A stretch of 63,945 bases of DNA, the filler included, from Globobulimina sp. (Eukaryota): assembly GCA_003354225.1 (NCBI GenBank). It is 41 parts of 41 records of this genome, joined end to end, with 100 filler letters (N's around TTAATTAATTAA, not from the genome) between each part and the next. Parts side by side here need not be neighbours in the genome. Positions count along the whole stretch, not along the records: positions 20,318 to 21,779 come from PIVH01016291.1; 40 more parts are not named here. One strand, given 5' to 3'. The notes beneath the pieces are model-generated. The model did no database searches and had not been told where the DNA came from. It saw nothing but the letters and a program-made list of their open reading frames with translations. The translations under genes were made by a program, and so were the position numbers. Position 1 is the first letter of the stretch. Each line of letters opens with the position of its first letter. Shown here piece by piece: positions 17,331 through 48,310 of the stretch.

Positions 17331-18649
17331 TTATGTCAATCCGGCTCGTTCCAACGACCAATTAATGATCATAGTCTGTACGTCGTTGAACACCTTTTCA
17401 ATTTGATCCTTATTCGTGGCATTCGTGACATGCGTAAAGATCGACCTCGCCTGATTCCTATTGGTGTTCGTAAATACCTCTTTGATATAAGTCAATGAGG
17501 CTTGCGAGTCATTGGGCGGTCCGTCATAGCTCTCGAACACCGGCGCCACACTGATCGACACAGCCGCTATTTTATCATAGTACAAATCCGACTTATTCAA
17601 GAACAAAATGAATGGAATATCCTGGAACCACTCGCTGTTGACTTGTTCGTCAAAGACCTCAATGGAAACTCCCATCGCATTCTCCTCGTCTTCGAAGGTC
17701 AACTCGTCATAACACGACAAACTCACTACGAATATCACCGACGTCACGGCACTAAAAAAATGGATCCATTTCCTGCGCTCATTGCGCTGTCCGCCGACAT
17801 CGCATATCTTGAACTTATGGTTTTTTATCAAAAAATTCTTCTCTTGCATTCCTATATAAGTAAGCATTAAAAGCGTCATTCCCCAGTTTCAAACTGCAAA
17901 AAAGAAGCAACCTATGCCATTTTCGCCAGTTTCAGACTGAAACGCAACAAATTGGGGCAGTTTGAAACTGAGAAAAGGTGCATCAAAATGTACGCAAAAT
18001 CGCACATCCAACCTGTAGTCCTATATCGCACCATTATTAAGTCAGTGTCAGTCGGCACATAATCGGAACCCGTCACGCGGTCCAAGTCGCGATAGAAATA
18101 CTCGCTGGAATCCGGCACGCAAATCTCGTTCCGGATGGCGTACATGGATTGGATCACGGTGTTGCACCATAATTGTTTTAAATTGTCGATCATTTTGTCG
18201 CTTAATTTCTGGCTGTTTCTGATGGATAATACGGACTCCGCTGCGTCTTTGACAGCATCTTCATTGTCATCGGTTGGATTATAGGATTGGCTTTGTTTTG
18301 TTTCGTCGTTTTCGTCGTCGGACTCTTCGTCGTAGCCATAGTCGTATAGCTTATATTTGGCATATAATTCGGGATCGCGTTCCCAATATTCCTCGCAGCG
18401 GGAAATCAAGGTTTTCATCGACTCGATCAATTGTTCATGGATTTGCTTTTGAAATAAGAGCCTCTGCCGGGCGGGGAAGCCTTGACCGTGGATATATTCT
18501 AATTGCTTGAATAAGGTGGACTTGCCGCTGCCGCCTGCGCCTAATAACAACAACTTAATCTCGGATTGGCTGACTTGGTTTGATTTCTCTAAATCGCGTT
18601 GGACTTCACGATCTTTCGGGTCTGCCGGCGCTACACAACAACCAACCAT
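17331..18649 (-). CDS. Heterotrimeric G-protein alpha subunit, two exons (intron 17852-18012)
   Basis: GAGGSGKST, RYRTTG, DVGGQRNERRKW, FLNKSD and TNAT motifs; the splice restores the frame. Confidence 0.97.
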
Positions 18650-18780
18650 GACGCANNNNNNNNNNNNNNNNNNNNNNNNNNNNNNNNNNNNNNNNNNNNT
18701 TAATTAATTAANNNNNNNNNNNNNNNNNNNNNNNNNNNNNNNNNNNNNNNNNNNNATCAGGCTTAATTCAATTTGTAGAC

Positions 18781-19340
18781 TGCACACCCGATGTTACAGA
18801 AACCGTGTAACCGCTTACCAATTATTTTGTATCTGGATTACAAAAGGATTTTAATGACGGCAGCACAACAATTGGAGGTATTTTTACAGCCACCAATAGA
18901 CAAATTGATGATGAACATTTAAATTATTTACATACTAAAGCATATACTGGAGGAATTGATCTTGATCACTATATGTTTGATAATAAATATGAAATTGAAG
19001 GTGCTTTTTCGTTTTCAAATGTGTACGGTTCTGAGGAAGCTATCTTAGAAACTCAAACCAGTTCTCGTCATTACTTTCAACGACCCGCAAAACATTTAAG
19101 CATTGATTCTACGGCAACTAATCTAGAAGGTTTTTCCCATAAATTAGCTTTCTCAATGATTAGAGGTGAACATTGGAGGTGGTCGCTTGGCGAATGGGCA
19201 TTTTCTCCGGGATTTGAAGCAAATGATCTAGGTTTTAATAGACAATCCGATTCACAAGTTGGATTTATATGGGCACAATACCGACAAGACGATCCCGGCA
19301 AATATATTCGTAGTCATCGCACCAATTTTAATTTAGGAGC
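18781..19340 (+). pseudogene. Bacterial DUF5916-like outer-membrane protein fragment
   Basis: ETV*PLTNYFVSGLQKDFN, AYTGGID, GSEEAILETQTSSRHYFQRP and SPGFEANDLGF; in-frame TAA at 18808-18810. Confidence 0.7.
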
Positions 19341-20217
19341 TGCAGTAAAATCCAAACGGAAGACCTTGGACGATTTGGAGAGCAAAGCTGAATTATTGGA
19401 GCCGGCGCGGAAAGCTAAACTGCTCAAGTTTGAGTTCCCCGACGTTGGGCAGTTGGAGGAATATGTCTGTTTAATGGAGGACGTCTCCTTTAAGTACCCC
19501 AATATGGACAAGATGTTGTTGTGTAATATCGACTTGCAGTTAGACACGGATTCGAGGATAGGGATGATTGGCGCCAATGGCGTGGGGAAGTCGACCATCG
19601 TGAAATTGATATTGAATAAGTTGGAGCCGTTGGAAGGCGAATGTAAATGCAATCGGCAGGCGAGAATCGCGCTATTTACGCAATACCACATCGACCAATT
19701 GAATTTGGAGCAGTCGGCAGTGGAGTTTCTGTGCGAGCGGTTCGCCAATGACTCGGATATGAAGCAACATAAAGATAAGACTGGCTATGCGCGGCGGAGA
19801 TTGGGCCGCTTTAAGTTGACTGGAAAGCAGCATACACAGAAAATGAAGTATTTGTCCGGCGGTCAGAAGTCGCGGGTGGCCTTTTGCGTGGCGACGTGGA
19901 TCAAGCCGCACTTTTTGATTATGGACGAACCGACCAACCATTTGGATATGGAGACCATTGATTCGTTGATTGAAGCGATCAAATCCTTTCCCGGCGGCTG
20001 TTTGGTGATATCTCACGATCAGCATTTTTTGCAGCAAGCGGCCAATGAATATTGGGCAGTGACGCCAGAAGCCATTAAAGCGTTTAACTCGTTTGAAAAT
20101 GCCAAAGAATTTGCATTGAAGTCGAGGTTGGATCAATTGAATGCTTTGGATGAGGAGGAACAGGTTAATGAGGAGGAGCAAAAGAAAAATTATGCCAATA
20201 AGAAAAAGAAAGGGAAA
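19341..20217 (+). CDS. ABC-F family protein, linker and second ATPase domain
   Basis: GANGVGKST, LSGGQKSRVAF, MDEPTNHLD and ISHD motifs; no TM domain. Confidence 0.95.
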
Positions 20218-20341
20218 NNNNNNNNNNNNNNNNNNNNNNNNNNNNNNNNNNNNNNNNNNNNTTAATTAATTAANNNNNNNNNNNNNNNNNNNNNNNNNNN
20301 NNNNNNNNNNNNNNNNNTATATTAACGACAGAAACGATACG

Positions 20342-20641
20342 ATGAGTTGGTTTAAGGTAAAATCACAAAATCAAACAAGAAGAATTAGATTCGACCAGGA
20401 ATCATTAGGTAATTACGAAGCATTTAAAAATCGGATTATTGAAAAATTTGATTTCGCCGTAGTTATTCGTCTGGAATACAAATTGAATGGTGATAATGAT
20501 AAAATTATTATCGATAACGAACAAGATTTTGTAGAATTGATGCAAGATGCACTAATTCTCATTGATTGCTTTATTGTAAATCGCGAAGACGAAGAAGAAA
20601 AAAGAAATGATTTGGTGCCATTTGAAAGAAATAATAATTAA
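20342..20641 (+). CDS. PB1 domain, in frame with the downstream Gag ORF
   Basis: FKVK..QTRRIRF...F...I.EKF...IRLEYK..GDNDKIIIDNEQDF, i.e. basic beta1 Lys plus OPCA-like acidic motif. Confidence 0.7.
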   Translation: MSWFKVKSQNQTRRIRFDQESLGNYEAFKNRIIEKFDFAVVIRLEYKLNGDNDKIIIDNEQDFVELMQDALILIDCFIVNREDEEEKRNDLVPFERNNN

Positions 20642-21779
20642 AATCGAAACTCTGCGCATCATATTCGTAATACATTGGCAAAATTAGCCATAACTAGTAT
20701 ACCATTTAAATTTAATGGTAAAGAGAGTGAAAATATCAATCACTTTAAATTAAGAATAAATAAATATTGCGAAAACAATGAAATTGATAATGGAATATTA
20801 TTGAAACTGTTATTAAATGGTAAAGTTTTAGGCGAATCTGCCTATACATATTTACAACAAAAGGATTTAGATCTCAATGTATTAGATGCCGATAATGATA
20901 AATTAGCATTAGTTTGGGATACATTAATTGCGCGATATGGTAAATTAAATCAAGTAATTCATTACAAACGAAGAATACAACAAAGTAAACAAGGAAGTGT
21001 TTCTATTAAACGACATTTAGAGCACTTTAAAGAAGTATGTCAAAACTTGTCGATTGAGATAAAAATACAGCAATCGAACGGTTTTATTTATCAAAATATG
21101 GACGAATATGAAATCGCGGAATGTTTTATAAAAGGATTAAAATTAGATATTCGATCAAGAGTTATTGATAAAGCTGTACATATTCATAATACTCCAGCTA
21201 TTAATATGCAACAATTAGAAGATATTTTAGCCAAATTCATTGAGCAAGAAAATTATTTAGCTGCAGTTACGAATACGCGACGCGAAGATATCAATGTTAT
21301 ATCACAAAACGAAGAAATTAATGAGTTAAAAGTGCAAATAAACGCACTTAATAATCAGATTCAAGGTAGATTTCAAGGACAAGGACCACGTAATTATGGT
21401 AATCGTGGCAGCGGTTTTCGTGGCGGTGGTTATCGTGGAGGTAATCGTAGCGGTGCTCATCGTGGAGGTAATCGTGGCGGTGCTAATCGTCCCGGATATA
21501 AACCGAAATGCAAACATGGCAAAGAATGTCATTATGGGTTAAAATGTAAGTTTTATCACTTCGCAGATCATATTGAAGCATTTAAAAAGCGAAAACCAGA
21601 CAGATTTACGTCGCATATTAATAATATAAACAACATTAATGTACAAGAAACAGATAGCAATATCCAAGAAACGGAGACAGAATCCGTAGTTATTCAAAAT
21701 GTTGAAGATCCATTTAAATTATGCGAAGATACCGAGGAAGAAAATGACTCGGATTTTTATTAGACCCAAGTACGTCTAT
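20642..21779 (+). mobile_element. gag: Ty3/Gypsy-type Gag (capsid, coiled coil, RGG tract, CCCH zinc finger)
   Basis: PFKFNGKESENINHF, LGESAYTY, KQGSVSI..HL..F and FIKGLKLDIR capsid motifs; RGG repeats; C-x5-C-x5-C-x3-H; TAG at 21761-21763. Confidence 0.8.
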
Positions 21780-37499: not shown

Positions 37500-37571
<72 letters not shown>

Positions 37572-46871: not shown

Positions 46872-48310
46872 TCTACATCGAGTCGCTTGATATTGAAATA
46901 AAAAAAATTTATGATTTAGTTAATAAAAAACGGCAAATAAGTTAATGTGATGAAATACACGCATGTATATGATGCTATTGGCGCTAAATCGGGGTTATGT
47001 GTAGTTTGAGTAGCAGTAGCGATATTGATATCAATTGGGGATTTTGTAGGCGTAAACGTAGGTTCTGTTATTTCCCCAAAAGCAATTTCCACTCTGCTAT
47101 ATGGCCATCCATAAATATTATTTTGTCCACTCCCTGTATTTAGCATATAATTATTGGAAAATATTGGTTGCTGTTTAAATGAAAATCCCTGATCACCAAT
47201 AATACCAACACCTGATCCAGAATATAAACATCCACCTTCCATCTGAGCATAATTTGAGATAAACGAGACACTCCCATTAAAGGTTGCAAATGATTTGCCA
47301 TCAGCTGCTATACATCCACCTGATTCTAATGCATAATTATTGCTAAATGTTGTATCAATAAATGTTGGATCACAATCAAAGTCAAGATAGATTGCACCAC
47401 CTTTTTTGGCACATGAATTGCTATCAAATTTGCATGATTTACAAATAAAATTACATTCTACATCAGCAGATATCGCACCTCCTCTCATCACTGCCCTATT
47501 CCCTAAAAAAGCCACATTGATAAATGTTGGTGATTTATTAATGCCACTCCCTCCTTGCAATCCAATGCAATACACAGCACCGCCTTTTCCAGCACTAAAT
47601 AGTTTATAAAAGATGCTATTTACAATTAACAGTTATTGTTGTACTATTCGAATAAATACCAGCTCCGGGATTAGTTGCAGTCGATGACAACACTTCATTC
47701 ACAGATATTGAATTTGCTAATCGCCGTCTATTAGCCACACCACTTCCAGCTGCGATAAAAAGAAAACCATCCAACAATGTATTATCTGCTGCAGTGATTA
47801 TTTGATTACATTGAACTGAGATGGGAGTTATCGCAACTTGGCATGATAGATAAGTTGGATTATCTCGCCAATTTCTGCCCTGCCGATTACTTTCTGTTCC
47901 ATCAAAACCTCCATACATTCGAATATTCTCATATAAAGAAAATGAGCTTTCAATATTCACAGTTTGACCAATACGTTGTTTCCAATCTGGAATTGTCGTC
48001 GGAATATATGTTCCTTTAAAGTATGTAATTTGTGCTGCTGTTGTAGATATTATTCAGAAACAGCAAATTGTTGTACATTCTCTGCTGTTTCTGAATAATA
48101 TCTGTCATATTAAAGGTGAATTTTATTTCAATTACCTTGTTTAACCCATATTTCTCCTCCAATACTCTTCAAATCCTCCAAACATGCTTGAATATCATTA
48201 TACGCGGAGGACCAGGAAGTACCATCTTTAATGGTATTAATATTATCAATATCAACAAAACATAAACTATCAGAAATATTAAATGGATACAGATCAATCT
48301 CTGTTTGCAT
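46872..48310 (-). CDS. Bacterial-type right-handed beta-helix (pectin-lyase fold / Pmp-like repeats) protein, with one intron and one frameshift
   Basis: DGTSWSSAYNDIQ, EIWVKQG|TYIP (intron 48014-48135), MYGGFDGTE..R..RNW..NPTYLS, FxxN...GGAI repeats; frameshift within 47616-47632. Confidence 0.8.

Follow-up and report, generated by a model that had tools for sequence, protein, structure and literature searches.

The window analysed here is a stretch of 63,945 nt from the Globobulimina sp. assembly GCA_003354225.1 and consists of 41 contigs of 1461–1463 nt each (GC content 26–44%), ordered by size and joined via N44-TTAATTAATTAA-N44 spacers. The contigs are unrelated to one another. Position 21779 is therefore the real end of a contig, and genes lying next to it in the window say nothing about the genomic context of the contig considered below, the gag contig. 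It carries a gene on the + strand with flanks of 24 nt on the 5′ side and 16 nt on the 3′ side. The contig and its features are as follows.

20318–21779, + strand: gag contig, 1462 nt, 31% GC, with artificial N/TTAATTAATTAA spacers on either side
20342–20344, + strand: start codon; relatives likewise begin MS.. at the aligned position
20342–20587, + strand: PB1 domain, residues 1–82, predicted beta-grasp fold, pLDDT above 90
20588–20662, + strand: Asn-rich linker, unconserved, low pLDDT
20639–20641, + strand: in-frame TAA inside the linker, context AAT TAA AAT
20663–21301, + strand: two-lobed retroelement capsid (predicted), residues 108–320, pLDDT above 90
21302–21376, + strand: long helix after the capsid in the model, where helices end at residue 344
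21398–21490, + strand: RGG/RG tract, residues 353–383, predicted to be disordered
21509–21559, + strand: single zinc finger of the form C-x5-C-x5-C-x3-H, residues 390–406, sequence CKHGKECHYGLKCKFYH
21560–21760, + strand: acidic tail, disordered, ending in ..DSDFY; a C-terminal D/N-F is common to relatives
21761–21763, + strand: TAG, by its position the ordinary gag stop
21764–21779, + strand: 3′ flank after the TAG, 16 nt (TQVRL) to the contig end, too short for interpretation

All parts of the gene share frame 1 of the contig, which opens with the ATG at 20342, is interrupted once by the TAA at 20639–20641 (..ERNNN*NRNSAHH..) and closes with the TAG at 21761–21763. The encoded order is PB1, Asn-rich linker with the TAA, two-lobed capsid, RGG tract, CCCH finger and acidic tail. 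Frame 1 contains 2 stops in 487 codons, compared with 28–65 in the remaining five frames and with a mean of 42.6 (minimum 23) in 2000 shuffles of the contig. Downstream of the TAA, no in-frame ATG occurs before 21098 (residue 253), midway through the capsid domain. The initial annotation, made from the sequence alone, had described a PB1 and a capsid ORF in one frame separated by a single TAA, with no ATG upstream of or within the N-terminal capsid motifs, a nucleocapsid consisting of an RGG tract and a C-x5-C-x5-C-x3-H finger without a CCHC knuckle, and a TAG followed by TQVRL up to the contig edge; each element of this layout was recovered at the positions listed above. The window copy contains one CCCH finger and no CCHC zinc knuckle.

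The remaining contigs of the window are eukaryotic and carry genes for G-alpha, RGS, BBS7, dual-specificity phosphatase, MATH and amino-acid transporter proteins. The G-alpha gene (17334–18649, − strand) is 70–86% identical to transcripts of relatives, the best named ones being from the foraminifera Ammonia sp. (70%) and Reticulomyxa filosa. It is composed of two exons separated by a GT-AG intron of ~160 nt at about 18012–17852, and this intron indicates that the window contigs are genomic DNA. The contig at 18756–20217 has a single open frame of 469 aa (18811–20217, + strand) in which a bacterial-type DUF5916 segment (residues 1–206, E 1e-11) is followed by an ABC ATPase domain (residues 239–376), an arrangement that may reflect either a chimeric assembly or an uncommon fusion. 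Another contig starts with 36 A (37500–37535) followed by T's, possibly because its end is of low complexity or because the tract resembles poly(A). Finally, on a eukaryote-like contig, the open frame at 46919–47632 (− strand) contains Chlam_PMP repeats, which are those of the polymorphic membrane proteins of Chlamydia.

For structural analysis of the gag product, the read-through window protein, with X at the stop, was modelled with AlphaFold from an alignment of 43 sequences. The model has a mean pLDDT of 80.4, with values above 90 over residues 1–80 and 120–310. Foldseek comparison of the model with the PDB gave no match at E ≤ 0.001 (the best were 0.013 for the capsid and 0.033 for PB1), which we attribute to the query being a multidomain model. 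In a PDB sequence search with the window's own parts, nothing significant was found for either PB1 or the capsid.

The N-terminal ORF of the window scores 19.9 bits (E 7e-4) against Pfam PB1 (PF00564), below the gathering cutoff of 23.6, and its relative P0003 scores 25.4 bits, above this cutoff. The modelled domain has the beta-grasp PB1 fold, and its Foldseek matches in the PDB are MEKK3, Par6/aPKC, ARF5, NBR1 and p40/p67phox, with TM scores by target of 0.55–0.73, probabilities of about 1.0 and E values of 0.03–0.1. The same result was obtained for another relative, P0018; thus, the absence of any PB1 fold match, which the initial annotation had named as an outcome that would speak against it, is not what the models of these two proteins show. 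An HMM built from three PB1 segments of the family finds 12 further family members. It also recovers each of the six canonical PB1 repeats in P0072, which is RWP-RK/NLP-like and has a Pfam PB1 score of 255 bits.

The window domain thereby shares its beta-grasp fold with the PB1 scaffolds (p62/SQSTM1, NBR1, Par6/aPKC, MEKK2/3, ARF and Aux/IAA, NLP), including the NLP-like P0072, whose six repeats the family HMM recognises. It differs from all of these in being fused to a retroelement capsid and in having an OPCA-type motif that, by eye, is partly Asn. Front-to-back PB1 binding involves basic residues of beta1/beta2 and the acidic OPCA motif. On inspection by eye, the window domain contains the basic residues K5/K7 and R13/R14/R16 in beta1/beta2, and in the segment Y46-KLNGDNDKIIIDNEQDF some acidic positions are kept and others are Asn. 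With the basic face retained and the acidic one partly substituted, self-polymerisation via a PB1 domain of the window type may be regarded as plausible.

The region that follows the linker has, in the predicted model, the two-lobed fold of retroviral-type capsids. Its Foldseek matches in the PDB are the Copia capsid 8vvw (E 0.013, probability 1.00), BLV CA, dArc1, Arc and MLV CA, and the best named match in the BFVD library of viral structures is an endogenous-retrovirus Gag (E 8e-4). The window protein has no match to Pfam Retrotrans_gag (PF03732, cutoff 24.1 bits). In the nucleocapsid, the finger of the family profile is closest to that of ZC3H12A/C (Regnase), with E 1e-4 over a match of ~25 residues. 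The window protein shares the C-x5-C-x5-C-x3-H spacing with Regnase-1/ZC3H12A and differs from it by having no NYN nuclease domain. The domain names given in the initial annotation are therefore upheld by relatives, profiles and predicted folds, but not by the Pfam scores of the window protein itself, which are below the cutoff for PB1 and absent for Retrotrans_gag.

A word-index search with the window protein identified three relatives (P0003–P0005). P0003 is a protein of 495 aa, 38% identical to the Gag part of the window protein, that combines PB1 and the capsid core in a single open frame and has a sub-cutoff match to Retrotrans_gag. A profile search covering 1.84 billion representatives returned 83 proteins at E ≤ 1e-3, 35 of them at E ≤ 1e-10, and a word-index search with the 43-sequence alignment returned 4. 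At E ≤ 0.05, Retrotrans_gag matches 14 of the 43 aligned members, PB1 three, zf-CCCH five and zf-CCHC four; two relatives, P0010 (30.0 bits) and P0011 (26.2 bits), exceed the Retrotrans_gag cutoff of 24.1. In P0003, P0005, P0007, P0009, P0010 and others, PB1, capsid and finger are encoded in one uninterrupted frame. The possibility raised at the outset that sibling Gags never carry the PB1 segment is answered by these proteins. Together, the sequence comparisons and the predicted folds confirm that PB1 and Gag form one gene and that the fusion is conserved.

Several relatives extend beyond the architecture of the window protein. CCHC knuckles are present in P0018, P0028, P0030, P0037 and P0073. 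In P0018, the PB1 and capsid folds are followed by two CCHC knuckles and then by a region that aligns with a protease-like segment of P0047. The latter, a protein of 1550 aa, aligns with columns 23–311 of the family profile at 98.9% probability; this part is followed by a tract rich in RG, by a motif that by eye reads DSG, and by matches to RVT_1 (21.9 bits, below cutoff) and RT_RNaseH (57 bits). Its closest solved relatives are the Ty3 RT/RNase H and Ty3 Gag-Pol (4ol8, 7q5b), and no integrase was detected in it. P0043, a relative with CCCH fingers, shares the pol region of P0047 (29% identity over 557 columns, E 1e-67). The nucleocapsid part is plastic across the family, comprising CCCH fingers only, CCHC knuckles only, both (P0028, P0030) or RGG only (P0047), and the RGG tract is located before or after the finger, depending on the family member. 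In P0027, P0033, P0037, P0041 and P0073, an N-terminal extension of 250–310 aa, rather than a short PB1 domain, precedes the capsid.

The Retrotrans_gag matches, the CCHC knuckles, the pol regions of P0047 and P0043 and the predicted capsid fold identify the family, at the level of sequence and model, as retroelement Gag. The claim that a retroelement Gag carries PB1 at the matrix position held up in the same comparisons: relatives are fused in the same way, the folds match, and P0047 and P0043 run into protease-like sequence and a reverse transcriptase. A distant relative, P0055, has a sub-cutoff match to PNMA, and the neighbours found in the ESM Atlas are Gag, PNMA and CCHC clusters with scores ≤ 0.90, which serve as leads only. 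The three closest relatives are single-sequence clusters represented by one contig each (12.9 kb for P0003, 5.7 kb for P0005 and 3.2 kb for P0004), which is unlike a high-copy element. Searches of the 41-contig window by tblastn and blastn revealed neither a second gag copy nor a pol related to that of P0047 or P0043, and two scans of bacterial and archaeal genome contigs revealed no relatives.

We compared the two in-frame stops of the window copy with the corresponding positions of the family. At the C-terminus, an exact [D/N/H/G]-F ending is found in 12 of the 85 relatives retrieved, and in another four a single residue follows the F, similarly to the DFY of the window protein. An acidic or polar residue followed by Phe is present at the C-termini of P0003–P0010, P0019, P0028, P0029, P0033 and P0035. 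The match of the family profile to the fused P0047 runs out near residue 464, where the sequence reads ..KDIF (by eye) and the frame continues into pol. As a matter of speculation, the conserved C-terminal D-F might represent the Gag/Pol border, a protease site or a binding motif. Because the TAG coincides with the C-terminus of the family, it is, judging by these sequences, the ordinary end of gag.

The TAA is located in the unconserved linker, which is open at this site in every full-length relative; when P0009, P0007 and P0047 are compared with the gag contig by tBLASTn, their alignments run straight across it. Splicing was considered as a way of removing the TAA and was rejected. No frame-preserving intron would remove it without the loss of conserved sequence: none of the 25 candidate GT..AG pairs ends before 20687, and all 25 delete the conserved AKLAIT..FKFNGK motif. 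Given an open linker in the relatives and the lack of support for an intron or another genetic code, the TAA most likely arose by nonsense mutation of a single copy or stems from an error in sequencing. The proposal that in-frame stops at both domain borders constitute a recoding design is thus not supported, with one stop at the normal C-terminus and the other at a site open in all relatives. For the TAA, the initial annotation had left the choice between a regulatory stop and decay; the open linker argues against the former, and decay, or alternatively a sequencing error, is the most likely outcome. It had also stated that a sense codon in other copies would dismiss readthrough and confirm the fusion, and this is the state of the linker in all full-length relatives.

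The possibility that the TAA is read through by design, yielding free PB1 and, more rarely, PB1-Gag, nonetheless deserves consideration, as retroelements are known to use stop readthrough. It would account for a single stop in an otherwise clean frame and for a downstream part with no usable start before residue 253, and there is a mild RNA structure 3′ of the TAA: the segment 20636–20760 folds with z −2.4, and 3 of 200 shuffles fold as well. However, its stem starts 26 nt after the stop (stems 20662–20760), and the stimulatory stem of a readthrough stop is expected about 8 nt after it. With an A after the TAA, the stop is in a context that favours termination most strongly and is not known to correspond to any leaky motif, and the stop is absent from the open linker of the relatives. 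A design of this kind is accordingly improbable. In MLV-type gag-pol readthrough, an in-frame stop likewise lies within the coding region of a retroelement, but the window stop is located in the PB1-capsid linker and not at the gag-pol border, and its TAA-A is neither conserved among relatives nor next to a structure. If TAA were a sense codon, under a genetic code that is alternative or depends on context, both parts would fall in a single frame of 481 codons. Under the standard code, however, four other contigs are open over 486–487 codons and the G-alpha gene on another contig reads correctly; reading TAA as sense lengthens most frames of the window only modestly, CAA occurs 25 times in the gag gene against a single TAA, and the TAG stands at a conserved protein end. 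We rejected this very unlikely option for lack of support. That the assembly wrongly joined a PB1 gene to a Gag gene is even harder to credit: assembly chimeras may exist in this data set, as suggested by the contig that joins DUF5916 and ABC ATPase, but the identical PB1-capsid architecture occurs in independent relatives from other sources, and the alignments cross the PB1-capsid junction.

The alternative that bears on the whole gene rather than on its stop is domestication, in which a PB1-capsid-CCCH RNA-binding protein would be kept by the host and would no longer be mobile. Such a history would fit a gag frame that stands alone with a C-terminus conserved in at least 12 relatives, the single-member clusters of the closest relatives on single contigs of 3.2–12.9 kb, and a host-type CCCH finger in place of the retroelement knuckle; moreover, the domesticated Gags Arc and PNMA2 are among the fold matches. 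Yet in LTR elements with two frames, it is normal for gag to have a frame of its own that stops where pol begins, and the window copy contains a premature stop. The family is also diverse (35 representatives at E ≤ 1e-10), with varied fingers and N-termini and with Gag-Pol forms, as is typical of mobile elements, and we consider domestication rather unlikely on balance. The resemblance of the window gene to the domesticated Gags (Arc/dArc, PNMA2, PEG10/RTL) consists in a stand-alone gag frame and the capsid fold, with Arc, dArc1/2 and PNMA2 among the fold matches. The difference is that the window family still includes Gag-Pol forms. To our knowledge, no PB1 domain occurs in any of these domesticated Gags.

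The reading that we prefer, with a rough probability of 0.7, is that the gene is the gag of a Ty3/gypsy-like LTR-retrotransposon with the organisation PB1-capsid-RGG-CCCH-acidic tail. This reading builds on four observations: the way the domains fold in the models, a fusion that is conserved, a family that is kin to Gag-Pol polyproteins, and a TAG that stands at a conserved C-terminus. We further infer that the TAA is a point mutation disabling the window copy or a base-calling error, that PB1 oligomerises or docks, and that the RGG tract and the CCCH finger bind RNA. Similarly to Ty3/gypsy (Metaviridae) Gag, the family has a two-lobed capsid followed by a nucleic-acid-binding zinc finger and includes relatives with Retrotrans_gag matches and CCHC knuckles, and the P0047 pol is closest to the RT/RNase H of Ty3. 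It differs from Ty3/gypsy Gag in the PB1 domain at the N-terminus and, in the window copy, in having one CCCH finger and an RGG tract and no CCHC knuckle. As no pol, LTR or target-site duplication is visible for the window copy on its short contig, the case for its being a mobile element comes from the relatives.

In a Gag of this organisation, PB1 would occupy the position of the retroviral matrix. Most likely, it would raise the local concentration of Gag for particle assembly, either because PB1 domains contact one another or because they dock to a PB1 protein of the host; the shell would be formed by the lobes of the capsid, and the RGG tract and the CCCH finger would bind RNA. More tentatively, the family might constitute a so far undescribed retroelement clade of foraminifera, perhaps shared with other protists, for which the captured PB1 domain was selected as a functional replacement of the matrix. 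Such a domain would nucleate particles by polymerising Gag front-to-back, or it would dock Gag onto PB1 scaffolds of the host, for example autophagy receptors, with CCCH and RGG taking over the role of CCHC in RNA packaging. This fuller scenario is possible rather than probable.

The PB1-Gag fusion is real and new as an architecture, and the stop codons are ordinary. The initial annotation knew of no description of such a fusion, and the full-text literature that we searched, which lies largely outside subscription journals, likewise yielded no description of PB1 in a retroelement Gag or of foraminiferal retroelements of this kind. The stops, at first the more eye-catching feature of the locus, thus turn out to be its unremarkable part. 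Gag proteins are built from a small set of well-known modules. A conserved PB1 domain at the N-terminus of Gag would represent a new route to gather capsid subunits or to plug them into host scaffolds, and the family would show that the nucleocapsid part can exchange CCHC for CCCH and RGG. The gene also provides a first glimpse of the mobile elements of foraminifera, a phylum with very little genome data.
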